Notes under the pieces: generated by a model
Databases searched by the model: none
What the model was told of the DNA's origin: nothing
What the model saw: the letters and a program-made list of their open reading frames with translations, nothing else
Shown here: piece after piece, positions 29,802-38,549 of the stretch
Position numbering within the stretch: the first letter of the stretch is position 1
Layout of the letters: every line of letters begins with the position of its first letter
IMG/VR virus record: IMGVR_UViG_3300024988_000067
Source: a virus
Direction: 5' to 3' (one strand)
DNA: 64,000 nt
Position numbers and translations under genes: made by a program

Positions 29802-30272
29802 CTATTTCTTAAGCGGAATGCCCGGCTTCGGCGGGGCGAAAATCTCCTTGCCTCTGACCCCTTTGTGGTACCTGTAGTAGAGTGTCCGGTATGGGATGCC
29901 GGTGGCATCGGCCCAGCCTTTTATCGTTCTGCGCACGCCGTCGATCTCGAGGAAGCAGTTGTTCCGCTTGTTTTCGCACTGGGTTTGCATGGACACCCAG
30001 CGGCAGTTGTCCGGTCCATAGCCCGCATTGTTGTTGGCCCGGTCCAGGGTGAGGCCGGGCCTGTATCCGTTCTCCAGCGCCCATATCTCGAAGGACAGGA
30101 AGGAGCTTTGCCATTCCTGGCAAACGCTTATCCCGCGCTCGCCGTAGTTGTGGAAGACCTCGGCCGTCTCGTTCATGCACCGGTACATCATCGAGCGCCA
30201 AACCCTGTAGAGGCTGCTCTCGGCGAGGTCTTGCCCGGTTGCACCGTGGCGCTCGTATCGGCGCTTCGTCAT
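29802..30272 (-). CDS. HNH homing-endonuclease-like protein
   Basis: LYRVWRSMMYRC...NYGERGISVCQEW...LTLDRANNNAGYGPDNCRW; ATGA-coupled to the int stop. Confidence 0.85.
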   Translation of the reverse strand: MTKRRYERHGATGQDLAESSLYRVWRSMMYRCMNETAEVFHNYGERGISVCQEWQSSFLSFEIWALENGYRPGLTLDRANNNAGYGPDNCRWVSMQTQCENKRNNCFLEIDGVRRTIKGWADATGIPYRTLYYRYHKGVRGKEIFAPPKPGIPLKK

Positions 30273-31447
30273 CCCACCTGCACCCTGACCCACTCCGCCC
30301 CGCGGGCGTCCTTGTAGATTGCGGTTGAACGGGGGTCTTTGTGGCCCAGCAGCAGCTGGGTATTGACGTTCCCTTGGTCGTTGTAGAGCCGTTCCGCCAG
30401 GGAGCGCAGTTCGTGGAAGCTGGGCGGGGTTTTGCCGGTTTCCCATAGGGGCGATTCGCTGCGGCTGGCGGCGAGGTCGCGGGCGTCGGCGAAGCGGCGG
30501 GTGATGGTATCTATCCACACCTGGTCGCCTGGATTGCAATTGCCGTAGGGACGTGTGTGGTGGACAGCGTAGCGGCTGACGACGGTGTCACGGCAGCGAG
30601 CGATGACTTCGCCGAGTTCAAGGCCGACGACGTCTAGACGCAGACTTAATGGGATGGCGACGCGGTTTCCGGTTTTTTGCTGGATGACGTAGATGGCGCC
30701 GGACTCGACCCAGGCCGAGGCGCCGGCGCGGGGACGGAATTCGATGCAGGCGATGTCTTCGCGGCGCTGGCCGGTGACGATAGCGAGCTCGATGCTGCGG
30801 GCGATCCACGGCGAGTCGAGTTCGAGGCTGGCAGCGTGGATCTGGCGGAAGCTGTCGAGCACCAGGCGGGCGCGCTGCACTTCGACTGACGGCGCGCGAG
30901 TCTTGGCGAATGGGTTGTCGGTGGCGAGGCCTTCGGCGATGGCGGTCTTGAAGATCTCGATTCCTTCGCTGCGCACGGCCAGCGCCATACGTTCGCGCGG
31001 TGGATCTGATTCGAGGTAGGCGGCGAGGATCTCTACGGCGTCGCGTACGCTGAAAGCGTCGATCGGCAGTTTGCCCTTGGCGCGGGTGATGGCGTTGCCG
31101 ATGCTGCGCTTGGTCTTGAGCGTGTTGGCGGCGAGCTTGCCCTTGGCCTGCAACTTCTCGCAGTGCTCGATGTGCTTGAGGATGACGGCGCCGAGGGTAG
31201 GACCGCTGGGCCTGGCTGTGGCGATGGCATCGACGCGCGCGCCGGCGAGCTGGGCGAGGATGGCGGCGTTGAGCGCTTTGGCGTCGGCGATGGCGGAGAC
31301 CTTGTCGCTGCCCATGCCGTGGAAGGTGCCGGTGCGGATGTCCTTGTAGCGGTAATAGGTGCGTCCGCTGGCGCGGTCTACAGTGGCATAGAGGTTGTCA
31401 GGCAGGTCGAGACTGCCCGGGCGGCGGCGGGGTGGCATGGCGGGCAT
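30269..31447 (-). CDS. int: Phage integrase, lambda-type tyrosine recombinase with arm-binding N-domain
   Basis: LPDNLY...YYRYKDIRTG N-domain; TGQRREDI, SFHELRSL, LLGHK, Y catalytic residues. Confidence 0.95.
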   Translation of the reverse strand: MPAMPPRRRPGSLDLPDNLYATVDRASGRTYYRYKDIRTGTFHGMGSDKVSAIADAKALNAAILAQLAGARVDAIATARPSGPTLGAVILKHIEHCEKLQAKGKLAANTLKTKRSIGNAITRAKGKLPIDAFSVRDAVEILAAYLESDPPRERMALAVRSEGIEIFKTAIAEGLATDNPFAKTRAPSVEVQRARLVLDSFRQIHAASLELDSPWIARSIELAIVTGQRREDIACIEFRPRAGASAWVESGAIYVIQQKTGNRVAIPLSLRLDVVGLELGEVIARCRDTVVSRYAVHHTRPYGNCNPGDQVWIDTITRRFADARDLAASRSESPLWETGKTPPSFHELRSLAERLYNDQGNVNTQLLLGHKDPRSTAIYKDARGAEWVRVQVG

Positions 31448-31455
31448 AGTAAACC

Positions 31456-32478
31456 TTATGCGGCGATCCGGTCGAGCGGGCTGATCGCACCGGCGGCGCC
31501 GCGTTTGACGACGTGGGTATAGATCATGGTGGTAGAAACGTCAGAGTGACCGAGCAGTTCCTGTACGGTGCGGATGTCGCTACCTGTTTCGAGCAGATGC
31601 GTGGCGAAGCTGTGGCGGAGGGTATGGCAGCTTGCAGGCTTATGGATGCCGGCCGCGATTACGGCGGCGCGCATGGCGCGCTGGATGCCTTTTTCATGGA
31701 TGTGGTGGCGGCGCACGACGCCGGTGCGTGGATCGGTGCTGTAGTCGGCCGCGGCGAATACGTATTGCCATGCCCATTCCTTCGGCGCGTTCGGATATTT
31801 CTTCCACAGCGCATGCGGTAGTTCGACGTCGACCATGCCGCGCGCGAGGTCGATGTCGTGCATCTTGCGGCGGACGGCGAGCTGATCGCGCAGCGGCTGC
31901 ACCAGGCTGGCAGGTAGCGGGACGACGCGGTCCTTGTCGCCCTTGCCGCCGCGCACCAGGATGATGTTCGAGTCGAAGTCGATGTCCTTGACGCGCAGCC
32001 GCATGGCTTCCATGAGGCGCATGCCGGTTCCGTAGAGCAGCCTGATGATCAGCCCGCTCGTGCCCTTGGTATGGGCAAGCACTGCAGCCACCTCGGACTG
32101 GCTCAATACGACAGGAAGCCGGGCCGGTTTCTTGGCGCGCGTGATGTTGTCGAGCCATGGCAGGTCGATTCCGAGCACATGCTTGTATAGGAAAAGCAGC
32201 GCTGCGAGCGCCTGATTTTGCGTGCTGGCAGAAACGTCACGCTCATTTGCGAGCATCGACAGGAAGGCTTCTATCTCGGGCGCTCCCATGTCGGCAGGGT
32301 GGCGAAGGCCGCTCCAGTGGATGAAGTGCTTGACCCAGCTGATATAGGTGCGCTCAGTGCGCAAGCTGTAGTGCTTGACACGGATCGCCGCGCGCATCTG
32401 GTCTAGCAGCTTGGGCTTGGCGGACACGGATGCCTTGTCCTGCTGCTGTGTCTCGATATGATCGATAGTTTCAGTCAT
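31456..32478 (-). CDS. intI: Integron integrase (not class 1)
   Basis: KHYSLRTERTY, STQNQALAALLFLY, LYGTGMRLME, GKGDKDR, integron-specific insertion LPHALWKKYPNAPKEWAWQYVF...DPRTGVVRRHH, HTLRHSFATHLL, IRTVQELLGHSDVSTTMIYTH all intact. Confidence 0.97.
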   Translation of the reverse strand: MTETIDHIETQQQDKASVSAKPKLLDQMRAAIRVKHYSLRTERTYISWVKHFIHWSGLRHPADMGAPEIEAFLSMLANERDVSASTQNQALAALLFLYKHVLGIDLPWLDNITRAKKPARLPVVLSQSEVAAVLAHTKGTSGLIIRLLYGTGMRLMEAMRLRVKDIDFDSNIILVRGGKGDKDRVVPLPASLVQPLRDQLAVRRKMHDIDLARGMVDVELPHALWKKYPNAPKEWAWQYVFAAADYSTDPRTGVVRRHHIHEKGIQRAMRAAVIAAGIHKPASCHTLRHSFATHLLETGSDIRTVQELLGHSDVSTTMIYTHVVKRGAAGAISPLDRIAA

Positions 32479-32520: not shown

Positions 32521-32569
32521 TTGATAGATTCGCGGACATCAGGGTGTCGTAGAATTTAAGTTAGCGGTC
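32521..32569 (+). other. attI site; crossover G/TT at 32560/32561
   Basis: gtcgtagaatttaaGTTAGCG just upstream of, and divergent from, intI; the core is mirrored by R'' of attC1. Confidence 0.8.
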
Positions 32570-33305
32570 ACAGGCTGCACGTCCTGCATTTGTTGGCTGA
32601 AAACCCAAACAGGTCGCCAGTCAACTCAGTGCCGCGTGGTATCTCGCCGCGCTCAAAAACATCCCGCAGTTCCGCCAGCGAGGCGGGCCAAGTGTCGCGG
32701 CTCGGGCTTCTGAATGTGTGCCCTATCGCCTGCTCCTGTTCCACCGCGTCCTGGTAAATCTCCGGGTGCTCTTTCCACAACATCCACCATTCCGGTAGCG
32801 TCTGGAAAAAACACCTAGCACAGTCCGTTCTTTCTGGTATCTGCACATCCCGATCCATCAAATACCCAAGCACATCACCCAAACCCCAACCCCAATCCCT
32901 GAAAGGGAAGCGAACTTCGCAGTTCTCATAAATCCCGCCCTCGCGGCCTTCCTCATCTGCCCGCAGCCCGATATACAAAACCACCTTGTTTCCCTGCTCG
33001 GCCTGGCGGTTTATCCACTCCTGGCAAGTTTCAATTTTCAAAACCCTAGTGCAAAACCGCTTCTGCCAATTCGGCAGGCATTTTTCCCGTTCGCACAAAC
33101 CCTTAAAATCTACCTCTGCGGTCAGCCGCGTCAGCCGCTTCCCGATCAGGCATTCCAGCCTATCCCAGTGCTCCAGCATCACCGGCAATTCATCGCCGGT
33201 GGGTGTGCACAAAAACACATAGTCCTGCGGCTCAATTTCGGCCAAGCGTAGCGCCAGCGCCGTGGAGTCTTTGCCGCCTGATAAACCAACTACGTGTAGT
33301 TCCAT
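32568..33305 (-). CDS. Cassette 1: PAPS-reductase-family (PP-loop) protein with Cys motifs
   Basis: VVGLSGGKDS, RFCTRVLKI, YIGLRADEEGR, RTDCARCFFQ; RBS GAGGA before MELHVV. Confidence 0.85.
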   Translation of the reverse strand: MELHVVGLSGGKDSTALALRLAEIEPQDYVFLCTPTGDELPVMLEHWDRLECLIGKRLTRLTAEVDFKGLCEREKCLPNWQKRFCTRVLKIETCQEWINRQAEQGNKVVLYIGLRADEEGREGGIYENCEVRFPFRDWGWGLGDVLGYLMDRDVQIPERTDCARCFFQTLPEWWMLWKEHPEIYQDAVEQEQAIGHTFRSPSRDTWPASLAELRDVFERGEIPRGTELTGDLFGFSANKCRTCSL

Positions 33306-33320
33306 GTCATCCTCAAAGAC

Positions 33321-33381
33321 CGCTAACACGGCGGTCAACAGCGACCGCGCGAAGCGCGGCGCGTTACCTTAGTCGTTGGCC
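33321..33381 (+). other. attC1 (61 bp)
   Basis: R'' (gac)CGCTAAC, L'' GGT(C)AAC pairs with L' GTTACC, R' GTTGGCC. Confidence 0.9.
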
Positions 33382-33412: not shown

Positions 33413-33595
33413 TTATGCCGTTTCGAGTGCGCTCTCGTTCCACCAGCTTTCCACGGCGCGGCCGTCGGCGGCTTTGTAGCGCAGCAGGTAGCTGTTCCCA
33501 CCTACCGCGTATTCCGCTCTGGCGATAATGCTGCCCGTTTCACCGCTGGCCGAAATCTTCACGGTCTGGTTCATGCTGAAGGTAAATCCGTTCAT
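33413..33595 (-). CDS. Cassette 2: small phage-type protein (60 aa)
   Basis: ORF track; fills the cassette. Confidence 0.7.
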   Translation of the reverse strand: MNGFTFSMNQTVKISASGETGSIIARAEYAVGGNSYLLRYKAADGRAVESWWNESALETA

Positions 33596-33639
33596 TTGCT
33601 GCCCCTGTTCAAAATGCCGTGCCTTCGTTTGGGCGGCAC

Positions 33640-33703
33640 GGCCAACCCGTTAATCAAGCGGGACCGGCGCTAAAGCGCCGGCCCCTTATTGCTGTCGTTG
33701 GGC
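33640..33703 (+). other. attC2 (64 bp)
   Basis: GGCCAAC, AAT(C)AAG/CTTATT, loop gcgctaaagcgc, GTTGGGC. Confidence 0.9.
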
Positions 33704-33912
33704 ACCTCATCATTCAGCTTTGCCAGCAGCTCCGGGTGAACAAACAGCGTGTTGCCGCTTCGGTACATTGCTGGCCTGTCGATCCGGTGCTTAACCACCA
33801 GCCAGTTGCGGCGGCGCTTCTTTATCGGGTTCCGCTCGATGCGCCACACAGTCCGCACTTCGCGGGCCATCGGTGCGCTCACAACGGTCAATCCGTAAAT
33901 CGTTCGGTTCAT
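33670..33912 (-). CDS. Cassette 3: hypothetical protein (MNRTIYG...), stop lies in attC2
   Basis: RBS GGAGAGG; ends VPNDSNKGPAL*. Confidence 0.7.
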   Translation of the reverse strand: MNRTIYGLTVVSAPMAREVRTVWRIERNPIKKRRRNWLVVKHRIDRPAMYRSGNTLFVHPELLAKLNDEVPNDSNKGPAL

Positions 33913-33932
33913 GGTTTCCTCTCCGGGCCAGT

Positions 33933-34019
33933 GCCCAACAATCCGGTCGAGCCGAGGCCCGCCAGCGTCTTTAATCCTTGCCGTGTTCCGTAAGGCCCGG
34001 CTCACCGCAAGCGTTCGGC
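33933..34019 (+). other. attC3 (87 bp)
   Basis: GCCCAAC, GGT(C)GAGC/GCTCACC, GTTCGGC. Confidence 0.9.
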
Positions 34020-34273
34020 GTCAGCTTCACGAATCCTCGGGCGACCATGTACGGGTCGCGCTCTGGGTGATACCGCCGCGCTTCAATGTTCTTCGCCGGC
34101 TTCAGGCTCAACATCCGCCGCCAGTATTTTCCGCAGGCCAGCGCCCGCTCGTGGTTCGCGGCCGCCACGTAAACCGAGCTGCCGCACTGCTTGCCCTTGC
34201 GGTCTATCGGGTACACCTCCCACTGCAATCGTTCGGGGTTCGCGCCCCACTTTCTCGGGTCGTCGTAGCTCAC
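33971..34273 (-). CDS. Cassette 4, ORF b (GTG start, 100 aa), stop lies in attC3
   Basis: GTGA overlap with ORF a; ends TPNACGEPGLTEHGKD*. Confidence 0.65.
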   Translation of the reverse strand: MSYDDPRKWGANPERLQWEVYPIDRKGKQCGSSVYVAAANHERALACGKYWRRMLSLKPAKNIEARRYHPERDPYMVARGFVKLTPNACGEPGLTEHGKD

Positions 34274-34488
34274 AGGTCTTTCTCCATCACTCGGCACGGC
34301 CAGTGATGGCCGCAGTTTGCACAGGCGGCTGTGTCCAGCCGGGTTGTTTTCAGCGCGGCCGGCGATCCGTTGGCCATCAGCCAGTGGTAGGCGTGGCGTC
34401 CGCAGCGCGGGCACCGGCGCTCAATCTTGGCCGGCAGCCGCCGAACCCGTCGCTCCAGAGGGACGCCCTCCATGCCGCTTCGCGTCAT
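34270..34488 (-). CDS. Cassette 4, ORF a: CxxC...CxxC zinc-ribbon protein, start inside attC4
   Basis: CPRC...CANC; RBS GGGGAGA and ATG lie within attC4. Confidence 0.6.
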   Translation of the reverse strand: MTRSGMEGVPLERRVRRLPAKIERRCPRCGRHAYHWLMANGSPAALKTTRLDTAACANCGHHWPCRVMEKDL

Positions 34489-34518
34489 TCCGGTCTCCCC
34501 TGATCTAGTGCGTTAGGC
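34440..34518 (+). other. attC4 (79 bp)
   Basis: GCCGAAC ... GTTAGGC; L boxes imperfect. Confidence 0.75.
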
Positions 34519-34803
34519 ATCGTCATGCTCTTGTTCACGCATCGCCATATCAATCGCGTCCCGCAGGCTGTGCAGGTTCGCGGTCACGCAATGGGTCGGA
34601 AGTTGCACGTTGCCCACAGGGTTGTCCGGGTCGCTCAACCAGTCCAGCCGTGCCGCATCGGCACGCAGTCTTTTGTTCTCGCGCTCCAGTTCGCGCAGCT
34701 TGTTCGCCGCCTGCCTCATCGCCTCTGCCTTTACTGGCGTGGTCGCCCTATTGGCTTCGCGGTCCAGGTAGCCCGCATATCGTTGTGCCATGCTCATCTT
34801 CAT
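34513..34803 (-). CDS. Cassette 5: phage-type coiled-coil protein (DAARLDWL motif)
   Basis: Stop TAA is formed by the cassette core TTA. Confidence 0.75.
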   Translation of the reverse strand: MKMSMAQRYAGYLDREANRATTPVKAEAMRQAANKLRELERENKRLRADAARLDWLSDPDNPVGNVQLPTHCVTANLHSLRDAIDMAMREQEHDDA

Positions 34804-34810
34804 CCTCTGC

Positions 34811-34871
34811 GCCTAACCCGGCGCTCAAGCGGGACCGCGCTAAAGCGCGGCCCCTTAGCTATGCGTTGGGC
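34811..34871 (+). other. attC5 (61 bp)
   Basis: GCCTAAC, GCT(C)AAG/CTTAGC, loop gcgctaaagcgc, GTTGGGC. Confidence 0.92.
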
Positions 34872-35116
34872 CACTCTGCAACCGTGGTCACGTCTTTCGA
34901 TGCGCCGCACCTCTTGCAAAGGTAGCCGGTGGTTGTCCACTTCAGTCCGTCGCCGTCCGGGTCAAGGTCGAGCGATCCGCTTGTGATTGACCATCGGTGC
35001 AGCCCTAGCGCACAAAGCAGTGGTGTGTATCCAATTTTTGCGGCCAGCGTTTGCAGCCCAACCCGGCAGTCGAGCGGAGGCTCGGCAGCGGCTTTGTGGT
35101 CTTTGCTATCGTTCAT
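34859..35116 (-). CDS. Cassette 6: Cys/His small protein (85 aa), start in attC6 and stop in attC5
   Basis: MNDSKDHKAAAEPPLDCRVG...LCALGLHRW...CKRCG...WPNA*. Confidence 0.7.
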   Translation of the reverse strand: MNDSKDHKAAAEPPLDCRVGLQTLAAKIGYTPLLCALGLHRWSITSGSLDLDPDGDGLKWTTTGYLCKRCGASKDVTTVAEWPNA

Positions 35117-35145
35117 TCTCGCCCTCGCTAACTTTTGCGTTGGGC
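35056..35145 (+). other. attC6 (90 bp)
   Basis: GCCCAAC, AGT(C)GAGC/GCTAACT, GTTGGGC; near-identical to attC7. Confidence 0.88.
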
Positions 35146-35357
35146 ACCTTGCATTTAGGAATCTCGGTTGCCATTGCGCGGCCCTCGTATGTGTCGCGCC
35201 GCCACCACCAGTATTCCGCGCCATCAAATCCGCAATGCACGCAGCATCCGTCATCGTCCCATTCGTGGCCGTTGTTCAGGGATCGCTTAGTCCGTTGCCC
35301 AACCCGGCAGTCGAGCGGAGGCTCGGCAGCGGCTTTGTGGTCTTTGCTATTTTCCAT
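35106..35357 (-). CDS. Cassette 7: zinc-ribbon small protein, start in attC7 and stop in attC6
   Basis: GHEW....CCVHCG; ends VPNAKVSEGENER*. Confidence 0.7.
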   Translation of the reverse strand: MENSKDHKAAAEPPLDCRVGQRTKRSLNNGHEWDDDGCCVHCGFDGAEYWWWRRDTYEGRAMATEIPKCKVPNAKVSEGENER

Positions 35358-35386
35358 TCTCGCCCTCGCTCACTTTTGCGTTGGGC
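35297..35386 (+). other. attC7 (90 bp)
   Basis: GCCCAAC, AGT(C)GAGC/GCTCACT, GTTGGGC. Confidence 0.9.
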
Positions 35387-35580
35387 ACCGGGTCATATTG
35401 ATACTCAAACCCATCGCACTTGACCCCTTCGTCGCCTCGCATCATTTCCATAGTCAGGCCACACGCGCCCGTAATGATCTCGTGCGGGTAATCCGGTATG
35501 AAGTGCGTGCAGTTCTGGCATATGCGGTCGCAGTTACACAAACCGGGGAAACACTTTTCGCAAAACGCAAACGTAACCAT
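35347..35580 (-). CDS. Cassette 8: Cys-rich small protein, stop lies in attC7
   Basis: CEKC...CNC..ICQNCTH...GAC...KC; ends VPNAKVSEGENGK*; start uncertain. Confidence 0.65.
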   Translation of the reverse strand: MVTFAFCEKCFPGLCNCDRICQNCTHFIPDYPHEIITGACGLTMEMMRGDEGVKCDGFEYQYDPVPNAKVSEGENGK

Positions 35581-35586
35581 TTCAGT

Positions 35587-35648
35587 GCCCAACAAGTTAA
35601 TCGAGCGGGACCGTCGCAAGCGCCGGCCCCTCATTGCTGGCGTTCTGC
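35587..35648 (+). other. attC8 (62 bp)
   Basis: GCCCAAC, AAT(C)GAG/CTCATT, GTTCTGC. Confidence 0.9.
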
Positions 35649-35932
35649 GGAATTTCCGCGCTGTCATGCGGTAGCTTCCCAACTTGTCGCAAATAGCCGA
35701 TATAGTTTTCGTCCGCCACTAATGAGACGCACATCAGTTCATATGGTCCTTTGTACGCCGTGCGCGGCACCTCGCCGGGCGCGGACTCCGGTTTTTCAAG
35801 GCACTTGAATCCGATGCTGAAAACAAACCCTGGAATCATCGGCAGCGCGTCGGCGCGAATCTTCAGTTCGCCAATCACCTTGTCATTTAGGAAACTCTCC
35901 AGAACCGGCACCGTTATAAATTCATCTTTCAT
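35597..35932 (-). CDS. Cassette 9: hypothetical protein (111 aa), stop lies in attC8
   Basis: RBS AAGGA; ends PQNASNEGPALATVPLD*. Confidence 0.75.
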   Translation of the reverse strand: MKDEFITVPVLESFLNDKVIGELKIRADALPMIPGFVFSIGFKCLEKPESAPGEVPRTAYKGPYELMCVSLVADENYIGYLRQVGKLPHDSAEIPQNASNEGPALATVPLD

Positions 35933-35965
35933 TTTTTTGTCCTTTCTTCGTAGTTACCAAATTCC

Positions 35966-36028
35966 GCAGAACACAACGCTCGTGTGGGACCGCCGCTAAA
36001 GCGGCGTCCCCACAGCTAAGCGTTGGGC
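35966..36028 (+). other. attC9 (63 bp)
   Basis: GCAGAAC, GCT(C)GTG/CACAGC, loop gctaaagc, GTTGGGC. Confidence 0.9.
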
Positions 36029-36231
36029 ACCAGGCCATGCTGCGCAAACAGTGCAACGTCCTCGGCGTCCGCAAACTTTGTTCCGCCGCCTTGCGAGTAC
36101 AGGCTGCGGACGGCTGGTGTCGCATGCCCTTCCTCGCGCAGCAATACGGCCACGGCGCAGTAGTAGCCGCGCGACCACTCGCGGCTTGCGATGTCGTCGA
36201 TCACCTTGTTAATCCGGTCGGCAAATGCCAT
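36016..36231 (-). CDS. Cassette 10: hypothetical protein (MAFADR...), stop lies in attC9
   Basis: RBS AGGAG; ends VPNA*. Confidence 0.7.
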   Translation of the reverse strand: MAFADRINKVIDDIASREWSRGYYCAVAVLLREEGHATPAVRSLYSQGGGTKFADAEDVALFAQHGLVPNA

Positions 36232-36248
36232 GTTCTGCTCCTGTTCGT

Positions 36249-36308
36249 GCCCAACCATTTATTCAACTCGGACGCGCTAAAGCGCGCCGGTTATGTCAAG
36301 CGTTAGGC
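36249..36308 (+). other. attC10 (60 bp)
   Basis: GCCCAAC ... loop gcgctaaagcgc ... GTTAGGC; L boxes imperfect. Confidence 0.82.
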
Positions 36309-36596
36309 ACACAAACGCAGTGCATCAATGGCATTGATTGCGGCGGCCTTATCTGAGTCGGGTGCCGGTGTGGAGCGAATAGCGATCTCCATTGCGTCCA
36401 GCTCCTCTTTTGTGCTGGCTCCGATCAGTCCGGCCAGTGCATTACGCAGCCGCTCAATCTTTTGCTCTGCCTCGCGCATAGGATGTTTCTCGCAATTCTT
36501 TATGTGTTCAGTCAACAGTTCATGCTTTGCGGCTGGTGTTCCGTCTGGGTATTGGTGCCCGCAATAAACACAGGTTACAACATTGTTTTCACTCAT
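36303..36596 (-). CDS. Cassette 11: zinc-finger-like (CVYC...HIKNC..H) phage-type protein
   Basis: Stop TAA is formed by the core TTA. Confidence 0.75.
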   Translation of the reverse strand: MSENNVVTCVYCGHQYPDGTPAAKHELLTEHIKNCEKHPMREAEQKIERLRNALAGLIGASTKEELDAMEIAIRSTPAPDSDKAAAINAIDALRLCA

Positions 36597-36616
36597 AATT
36601 CAATTCTCCCAAAAGT

Positions 36617-36692
36617 GCCTAACAAGGCAAATTAACTGCGACCGTTCCGGTCGCTGCGCTCCCTACACGTCGCGTTATTTGCAACGTTAGCC
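36617..36692 (+). other. attC11 (76 bp)
   Basis: GCCTAAC, AAAT(T)AAC/GTTATTT, GTTAGCC. Confidence 0.88.
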
Positions 36693-36878
36693 GCCACGTG
36701 TGCCGCCCAATTCGCGCAGCTTGTCGCATACCCATTGTGGGTCTGTCACGCTACCGCCAGGCATCACTTCGATTGCCCGGTTTAGTGCGGCCTTCCACGC
36801 AGCGCGCGCAACCCATTCCTGTGCTTCTGGGTCGTATTTCATCCCTTCGCGTTCAAACCATTGTTCAAATTCGTCCAC
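36687..36878 (-). CDS. Cassette 12: small phage-type protein (GTG start)
   Basis: FEQWF...VARAAWKAA; RBS GGAGAG lies inside attC12. Confidence 0.7.
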   Translation of the reverse strand: MDEFEQWFEREGMKYDPEAQEWVARAAWKAALNRAIEVMPGGSVTDPQWVCDKLRELGGTRGG

Positions 36879-36965
36879 GTCTAACTCTCCATTCCAGGCG
36901 AGGCCGTGGAGCAGCCTTCACCCATAGTTGTGTTCTTTCGGCCCGCCTAAATTTCAGCGTTGGCC
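36879..36965 (+). other. attC12 (87 bp), last attC of the array
   Basis: GTCTAAC, ATT(C)CAGG/CCTAAAT, GTTGGCC. Confidence 0.78.
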
Positions 36966-37854: not shown

Positions 37855-38091
37855 TCACGCTGCCGCCCTGAATATCACGGCTGCCCGATCGGACAGATTC
37901 ACGATTGCCCTGTCCGCTGGTGCAGCCTGCGCATGGGTATAGATGGCGTCGCGCTCGACATACCAGGTGCGGCCGGCTTTGATTGGGGCGGGCTGGATGT
38001 GGCCTGAGCGGGCCCAGGCGCGCAGGGTTGGCAGGGTCGGCTGGGGGTCGAAATGCAGGGCTGCCCAGGCTTCTAGGGTGATGCGTTTCAT
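37855..38091 (-). CDS. xis: Excisionase (lambda-like Xis)
   Basis: MKRITLEAWAALHF..QPTLPTLRAWARSGHIQPAPIKAGRTWYVERDA. Confidence 0.85.
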   Translation of the reverse strand: MKRITLEAWAALHFDPQPTLPTLRAWARSGHIQPAPIKAGRTWYVERDAIYTHAQAAPADRAIVNLSDRAAVIFRAAA

Positions 38092-38549
38092 GTCGGCTTC
38101 CGGTTGAGGGCGTCGCCGCGGTCGACTCGGCGGCGCACTTCGAGCATGGCGGCGCGCGCGCCGTCGCGGGTGATGTTGGCCAGCTGCGCTTCGTGGATCT
38201 CGACTGCGTGCGCGAGGGCGGTGTAGCCGGGCCCGTGGAATGCCCATTTGCCGAGGCGGCGATGGCGTTCGAGGATTTCGATCAAAGCGTCCTGGGCGGT
38301 CTGGATGTCAGTAAGGTATTCGGCGCCGACACCGCGTTCGCACAGTACGAGGCTGACGTTGACCGCAGCAGCGAGGGCGTGCCAGTCAAGTTCGATGCCG
38401 TTGCCGGTGCGCATGCGCTCGATGCTGGTATGGATGGCCATGCCAAGATCGGTGAGCTGATCGTCTGTGAGCTGATGCTGCATGGCGATGGCATGCGACC
38501 AGGCGCTGCGGTCGGCGCGGTAGGGGCGGTATTTGGAGCGTTTTCTCAT
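38088..38549 (-). CDS. Conserved phage hypothetical protein (153 aa)
   Basis: ATGA-coupled to xis. Confidence 0.7.
   Translation of the reverse strand: MRKRSKYRPYRADRSAWSHAIAMQHQLTDDQLTDLGMAIHTSIERMRTGNGIELDWHALAAAVNVSLVLCERGVGAEYLTDIQTAQDALIEILERHRRLGKWAFHGPGYTALAHAVEIHEAQLANITRDGARAAMLEVRRRVDRGDALNRKPT

Follow-up and report, generated by a model that had tools for sequence, protein, structure and literature searches.

The subject of this analysis is a pair of near-identical recombination sites, attC6 and attC7, in the cassette array of an integron carried by a virus genome (IMG/VR record IMGVR_UViG_3300024988_000067). The stretch analysed, 64,000 nucleotides of one strand read 5' to 3', is called the window here, and all coordinates refer to it. 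Both sites are probably copies of one widespread attC family whose bottom strand doubles as the front (5') end of the gene in its own cassette. Ribosomes would start at an ATG borne by the attC, successive cassettes would be coupled by termination–reinitiation at an 11-nt stop/start overlap, and the peptide encoded by the site would be a passive, disordered extension of otherwise unrelated proteins. An attC is usually regarded as non-coding structured DNA that stands behind the gene and tends to hinder translation. Here, the attC would be a recombination substrate, a ribosome-binding region and a coding sequence at once and, because one site would serve recombination and coding together, its boxes would be under two constraints.

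The twin sites attC6 (35056–35145) and attC7 (35297–35386) have their top strand on the plus strand of the window and are each 90 nt long. They are unlike only at positions 35110, 35111, 35113 and 35130, and these four differences agree with the original prediction, made from the letters of the sequence, of two 90-bp attCs differing at a few bases. Both sites read GCCCAAC...GTTGGGC, with R'' and R' ends that are mutually complementary. In attC6, R'' (GCCCAAC) occupies 35056–35062 and R' (GTTGGGC) 35139–35145; the crossover point falls between G 35139 and T 35140. The L boxes show AGT-C-GAGCG on the 5' arm of the plus strand opposite AGTGAGCG on the other arm, and the L and R boxes pair when the sites are folded with RNA parameters. 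The putative attC status of the twins rests on comparative evidence. The cassette of attC6 (34866–35139, 274 bp) comprises the body of an open reading frame (ORF), ORF5, together with attC6, and that of attC7 (35140–35380, 241 bp) comprises the body of ORF6 together with attC7.

The minus strand of both twins carries the Shine–Dalgarno (SD)-like motif GAGGG, followed after 5 nt by an ATG. In attC7, GAGGG (35363–35367, minus strand) lies in the L' arm, and the ATG that starts ORF6 (35355–35357, read from 35357 on the minus strand) lies in the unpaired loop. The twin copy in attC6 has GAGGG at 35122–35126 and the ATG of ORF5 in its loop at 35114–35116 (read from 35116), again on the minus strand. 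The attC-borne leader that follows is 20 codons long and reads MENSKDHKAAAEPPLDCRVG or MNDSKDHKAAAEPPLDCRVG, beginning MENSK in one version; it is encoded by the loop, L'' and R'', and runs stop-free and in frame into the body. The ribosome-binding site, start codon and shared leader of ~20 amino acids that had been predicted were found in both twins.

The product of ORF6 (35106–35357, minus strand) is 83 aa long and is composed of the 20-codon leader from attC7, a 10-codon linker, a core at residues 31–69 and a tail whose stop codon lies inside attC6. The conserved core, HEWDDDGCCxHCGFDGAE..TYEGRA..P.C, starts at residue 31. In an AlphaFold (AF2) model, the confidence score pLDDT is ~49 for residues 1–30 and ~84 for residues 31–70, and when Foldseek was used to compare this model with PDB structures, no hit was stronger than E = 6. 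ORF5 (34859–35116, minus strand; 85 aa) takes its leader from attC6 and continues into a different body containing ...CKRCG..., ending at a TAG within attC5, 4 nt past the crossover point. The bodies of ORF5 and ORF6 give no BLASTP alignment even at E = 100. The fusion of one leader to two unrelated bodies, as originally proposed, is therefore borne out at E <= 100, and the same result led to the rejection of a simple tandem duplication of one cassette as the source of the twins. Two 96%-identical 90-nt repeats 241 bp apart are what such a duplication would leave behind, but the bodies lack detectable similarity and each has relatives of its own elsewhere, which makes this explanation extremely improbable.

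The twins also hold the ends of the incoming genes. ORF7 (35347–35682, minus strand), the incoming ORF of the attC8 cassette, likely starts at ATG 35580 or ATG 35634, and its tail ...PNAKVSEGENGK ends in attC7 at TAG 35347–35349. ORF6 ends with ...PNAKVSEGENER (..ENER) at TAG 35106–35108 in attC6. Each incoming TAG lies 8 nt past the ATG of the next gene, which creates an 11-nt overlap between ORF7 and ORF6 and between ORF6 and ORF5; the overlap with the incoming stop that had been described from the sequence is present in both twins. Genes of the twin type have no stop codon of their own and run on into the next attC, across the crossover point (CCC AA|C). ORF6 (252 nt) exceeds its own 241-bp cassette, and in the circular form of the cassette it would go once round, stopping 8 nt past its own start.

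The attC family comprises at least three loop versions (MENSK/MNDSK, MTEQREK and MNKPDVI/MKKPDAI). Among them, the distance from the ATG to the conserved part varies by multiples of three, which the length before the ATG does not. In three diverged loop versions, the frame of arrival (..CCC AAC..) meets its stop 1–10 nt beyond the ATG, as TAG at +8, TGA at +5 or ATGA. Every loop version, and each of the 20 attC contexts, has an in-frame ATG. Crossing of the crossover point is also frequent beyond the window, with a tail beginning PN.. in 24 of the 39 database proteins that carry the leader.

The L-box stem of the predicted mRNA fold has GAGGG paired with the leader's CCUC, and the A of the ATG is unpaired; the duplex of GAGGG with the anti-SD sequence was computed at -8.9 kcal/mol. 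It is proposed that GAGGG is held in the stem of the mRNA attC by CCUCC of the leader, so that a ribosome finishing the upstream gene would be needed to open it. This coupling of translation by attC is inferred from anatomy, not from measurement.

Reuse of the leader attC with unrelated bodies was found on a large scale. A protein search recovered 39 database proteins with the leader, 36 of which have no other similarity to ORF6. Leader proteins and ORFs from DNA loci together fall into 40 body clusters without BLASTP similarity, and in this way the search for many unrelated fusion partners that had been called for yielded ~40 bodies. A Met occurs within the first 10 residues of the body in 5/39 proteins, and 9/39 have no Met in the body at all. 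Because gene callers that extend ORFs into attC could create such a list of proteins, attC was also looked for through nothing but its DNA pattern, in IMG/VR, in metagenomes from JGI/ENA and in genomes of GTDB; of the 18 metagenome matches to a 24-mer, six were an unrelated coding gene rather than attC and were left out. The leader frame proved to be the longest open frame past R'' in 14 of the 18 distinct DNA-sampled cassettes, where one third would be expected (binomial P = 1.4e-4). Such recurrence among independently sampled cassettes excludes a chance association.

Carriers of the family include metagenome-assembled genomes (MAGs) of Thiobacillus, Hydrogenophilales and Nevskia. A megablast comparison of the array region with INPHARED phages found no match, nor did a sensitive blastn search of attC7 against INPHARED and PLSDB; the sequences recovered so far place the twin attC family only in uncultured material. 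Two further loci were noted. A JGI metagenome contig (L015, 2100–2450) holds a pair of same-family attCs with MTEQREK and MNKPDVI loops, 224 bp apart. Another locus (L010, 800–960) has a copy of the leader (MELTEQKTKAAAEPPLDCRVM..) with no L'/R' arm and with a strong AGGAGGG of its own; this could be a decayed attC that fixes the cassette in place, or a hint at the origin of the leader.

The same bodies also occur behind other types of attC. At locus L025, the ORF6 body stands behind an 87-nt attC with a different loop, and one base more separates R'' from the body. The frame through R'' also differs (..STAGLG), and the loop has an ATG and a G-rich tract in that frame. At locus L033, the ORF5 body follows yet another attC, with a 4-nt indel after R'' and again another frame (..NVGLG), and once more there is an in-frame ATG. 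At a third locus (L032, 1440–1860), a relative of ORF6 forms a lone reversed cassette whose array mates are canonical (a GNAT acetyltransferase and a HicB antitoxin); the bottom strand of its attC loop carries GGAGGAA and an ATG. These three cases argue, at the level of sequence, that selection keeps the attC start in phase with the gene.

It is very improbable that the leader is not translated at all and is simply an open frame in attC into which gene callers extend, with true starts elsewhere or with ORFs that are not genes. Open frames are common in DNA of 61% G+C, GAGGG is sequestered in the predicted mRNA stem, and another frame is longer in four of the 18 sampled cassettes. However, sampling by DNA pattern still gives the leader frame as the longest in the other 14, and the frame-compensated pairings with other attC types arose twice independently. 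ATG 35357 and ATG 35116 are the sole ATG, GTG or TTG in the open frame upstream of the ORF6 and ORF5 bodies, leaving these genes without another canonical start. The invariable presence of an in-frame ATG in the attC contexts and the scarcity of early Met residues in the bodies point the same way. Furthermore, between copies of the cassette, the ORF6 body shows 11 synonymous changes versus 1 non-synonymous change, with 11 of the 12 changes at codon position 3. The frame set by the leader is taken as the coding frame because these changes are mostly synonymous, and the ORF6 body is under purifying selection in that frame. The original prediction had named two outcomes that would tell against it, namely translation starting downstream of R'' at alternative codons and homology between the two bodies. 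No canonical in-frame start was found in the search between R'' and the conserved domain, and, as indicated, the bodies are not homologous.

Another explanation for the shared N-terminus is that it is a functional peptide (a tag, or a targeting or interaction signal), conserved as protein rather than as attC. The near-invariance of AAAEPPLDCRVG in ~40 proteins is what such a role would produce. Nevertheless, the invariant part of the leader corresponds to the L'' and R'' boxes and the inner stem, while the first eight residues, encoded by the unpaired loop, vary freely in sequence and length. Moreover, the same bodies also stand behind attC types of other kinds, whose leaders are very unlike this one. 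The leader has no hydrophobic stretch, it is not part of the conserved domain, and the model shows it as disordered. A functional peptide is accordingly held to be improbable.

The two strands of an attC resemble each other, and the question of which cassette owns the leader-bearing attC was therefore approached through strand polarity. Three integrons were compared: the one in the window, that of locus L003 (IntI 64% identical) and that of L022, a Thiobacillus MAG (IntI 62% identical, same layout). In all three, the cassette adjoining attI has a hairpin on its far side and none on the intI side. The first cassette of L003 has a twin-type attC whose R'' is GCATAAC, and the sequence at attI there is G|TTATGC. 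As a polarity control, the aadB attC of a class 1 integron was used, in which the gene-sense strand has the extra L'' base on the 5' arm (GTC-C-AAGC). The plus strand of the window has the extra base in the same manner, as GCT-C-AAGC in attC5 and AGT-C-GAGCG in the twins. Because this arrangement matches the aadB control, the plus strand is the top strand and the cassette ORFs lie on the bottom strand. An inverted array was considered and rejected, given that the polarity of the extra-helical base and the anchoring at attI both put the top strand on plus.

The ORF6 cassette was found in four copies (the window, L027, L028 and L025). Their homology begins at the C of the front R', takes in attC and body and reaches the AA of the far R'; beyond AA|C at both ends, the copies diverge completely. 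Since the attI anchor, the aadB control and this four-context alignment agree, the front attC is assigned to the cassette itself; on this sequence evidence, the leader-side attC appears to belong to the cassette that it heads and to travel with the body. The original prediction had described one attC reused with different ORFs as a portable adaptor. Reuse stands, as one family is joined to many ORFs, but the site is neither free-moving nor donated from upstream: it is the cassette's own attC.

In the opposite assignment, the leader-bearing attC would belong to the upstream cassette, whose gene ends in it, and would donate its start and leader to the next arrival as a true inter-cassette adaptor. 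This would suit the fact that 10/12 array ORFs end inside the following attC, like canonical cassette genes, and also the finding of one body with different loop versions of the leader. Upstream ownership is nonetheless judged to have little probability. It conflicts with the far-side attC of the attI-proximal cassette and the absence of a hairpin on the intI side in the three integrons, with the plus strand of the window having the extra-helical base polarity of the aadB top strand, and with the four contexts of the ORF6 body, in which the front attC is kept and the attC behind is different each time. The bodies L006/P0031, L009/P0038 and L023/P0037 likewise keep their front attC.

A natural variant is the single observation that the model of upstream ownership predicts directly. 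In sequencing runs X3 and X5, which come from different studies, contigs match the window with no other difference, but 35055 is joined to 35297, skipping 241 bases; the twins are identical over their first 54 bases, and the joint can be placed at any point of that block. The full form, with the 241-bp ORF6 cassette, is present in run X1. (X1, X3 and X5 are public bioreactor and wastewater runs.) The variant keeps the attC7 loop, joined directly to the ORF5 body, as excision under upstream ownership would yield, whereas excision by IntI at R' would keep the attC6 version. Homologous exchange in the identical half of the twins is the simplest reading of the sequences, and such exchange would also explain the occurrence of one body with different loop versions. 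By this mechanism, only the front half of the site (the L' arm, SD and first codons) would be swapped between cassettes, apparently through homologous exchange in its conserved half.

Along with this variant, other observations weigh against the twins serving both as attC sites and as the starts of their own genes. When the 90-nt sites are folded with DNA parameters, the minimum-energy fold differs from the canonical attC hairpin, with z of -1.0 to -1.9 versus shuffles. The four sampled cassettes in which the leader frame is not the longest also belong here. In addition, loci were retrieved through exact 20–27-mers of the leader region, and the synonymous and non-synonymous counts cover the body, not the leader. 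A degenerate leader pattern allowing for codon wobble, applied to IMG/VR, returned just the three loci known from the exact 25-mer and added no synonymous variants.

Relatives of ORF6 outside integrons bear on the origin of these cassettes. In ordinary phage operons, they start 1–8 codons before the core, directly behind a PAPS-reductase-like gene, and there is no hairpin. At two such loci (L030, 639–1674, and L031, 653–1686), the HEWDDDG..TYEGRA gene stands directly behind the PAPS-reductase-like gene, and its start adjoins or overlaps the stop of the latter. In the window, a PAPS-reductase-like gene (32568–33338, cassette 1) and ORF6 (35106–35357, attC7 cassette) are separate cassettes. The PAPS-reductase-like protein and the ORF6-type protein may work together as a pair.

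It is conceivable, although doubtful, that new cassettes are born when gene fragments from phage operons that lack a start are joined on their 5' side to the R'' of an attC with a ribosome site and a start, giving in-frame fusions on the recombining strand. The ORF6 body serves as an example for such attC-first birth, its native relatives being translationally coupled behind the PAPS-reductase-like gene. If this were true, integron cassettes would be supplied and traded by phages as well as by bacteria, and cassette genesis would act at the fronts of genes, whereas current models place it at the 3' ends. Some 40 unrelated genes fused in frame exactly at R'' to one attC would in any case constitute a data set on cassette origin, an unsolved question, and for one of the fused genes, that of the ORF6 body, both native non-cassette relatives and copies behind other attC types exist.

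In sedentary chromosomal integrons, such as those with Vibrio cholerae repeats, a homogeneous attC family is joined to many unrelated genes; there, the attC stands behind a top-strand gene and does not encode the N-terminus of its product. The present family resembles the Vibrio cholerae repeats in associating one near-identical attC with many unrelated cassette genes. It differs from them in occurring on phage contigs as well as in the Thiobacillus, Hydrogenophilales and Nevskia MAGs, and in having its genes reversed.

Translation helpers have been described at the attI1 of class 1 integrons, where ORF-11, ORF-17 and ORF-18 act through termination–reinitiation (Hanau-Bercot et al. 2002, as summarized in the review PMC8876359). 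According to PMC8876359, ORF-11 likewise has an SD and an ATG in a recombination site, a frame that crosses the crossover point and a proposed role in helping the neighbouring cassette by termination–reinitiation. In the twins, too, the SD and ATG lie inside the recombination site and overlap the upstream stop. However, ORF-11 and ORF-18 are presented there (PMC8876359) as short separate peptides in attI, on the Pc-sense strand, that serve the first cassette only. In contrast, the twins are attC sites with the signals on the bottom strand, opposite to the Pc sense; the frame continues as the N-terminus of a cassette protein of 83 or 85 aa instead of giving a short peptide separate from the cassette gene, and the arrangement is present in every cassette of the family.

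Short ORFs inside attC have been reported to relieve the barrier that the attC stem-loop poses to translation (Jacquier et al. 2009, as covered in section 3.2 of PMC8876359). As outlined in that section of PMC8876359, they share with the twins an ORF that begins in attC, an mRNA hairpin as the barrier and a proposed termination–reinitiation, but they are carried by the top-strand transcript in canonical cassettes and stay separate from the gene. The twins differ in that the attC-borne start would be the gene's own start, and the attC precedes the gene. Complete integrons and attC clusters are also known in phage genomes, as reported by Qi et al. 2023 (PMC9892861), and the integron in the window resembles those cases in being a complete integron on a temperate phage genome. 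A term search of Qi et al. 2023 (PMC9892861) for "start codon", "antisense" and "opposite" found none of them. In the open-access full-text literature, no account was found of an attC bottom strand that codes for the N-terminus, start included, of its own cassette's protein, and none of a leader common to many cassettes.

The host replicon of the integron is a temperate phage genome, circular and of 38.7 kb. The window (1–64000) goes more than once round a circle of 38,749 bp: positions x and x+38749 agree over 25,251 bases, with 0 mismatches. Its G+C content is 61%. The integron integrase gene intI (31456–32478, minus strand; TIGR02249 476 bits, cutoff 265) sits between a lambda-type integrase (30269–31447) and an excisionase (37855–38247), and its product has 56.6% identity to IntI1. 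The attI crossover (G|TTAGCG, 32560) lies next to and upstream of intI and anchors an R'/R'' chain of 12 attC sites. The first six bases of each cassette are complementary to R'' of the next hairpin downstream, at 6/6 positions for attC1–attC11, and attC12 joins the chain with one mismatch. The integron is complete, with intI, attI and an attC array.

The attC top strands point away from intI, as in an ordinary integron platform. All 12 cassette ORFs, however, are on the bottom (minus) strand and point towards intI, with each attC preceding its own gene, whereas in the canonical layout the gene is on the top strand, is read away from intI and has its own attC behind it. Integron annotation that assumes top-strand genes will mis-assign such cassettes. 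A Pfam search of ten of the cassette ORFs gave nothing above the curated cut-offs. For 10 of the 12 ORFs in the window (33413–36959), the stop codon lies outside the gene's own cassette, inside the neighbouring attC; therefore, the C-terminal tail depends on the adjacent cassette. Genes that span the crossover would change both their C-terminal tail and their translational neighbour with each move of a cassette.

Initiation signals had also been predicted in attC4 and attC12, and both were confirmed. The bottom strand of attC4 (34440–34518, top strand plus) has GGGGAGA, 5 nt and ATG 34488, which opens a 72-aa ORF with CxxC pairs (34270–34488, minus strand) that reads ..VPLERRVRR.. through L''–R''. 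In attC12 (36879–36965, top strand plus), GGAGAG lies inside the site, before a GTG start at 36878 that abuts R''. The attC4 cassette (499 bp; window 33971–34488) contains two overlapping minus-strand ORFs in different frames, the 72-aa ORF and another at 33971–34414.

Finally, contigs of 33–40 kb, about the size of this phage, carry arrays of the same or related attC types at five loci (L001, L008, L006, L016 and L025). A search of the L001 record for intI found none. The shared attC types suggest a group of phages that would draw on a common cassette pool. In run X15, a sludge metatranscriptome, many short contigs match only attC (window 34811–34871, 35304–35359 and 35587–35644) and have other flanks beyond, and cassettes with these attC types are considered abundant in X15 because of these many attC-only contigs with other flanks.

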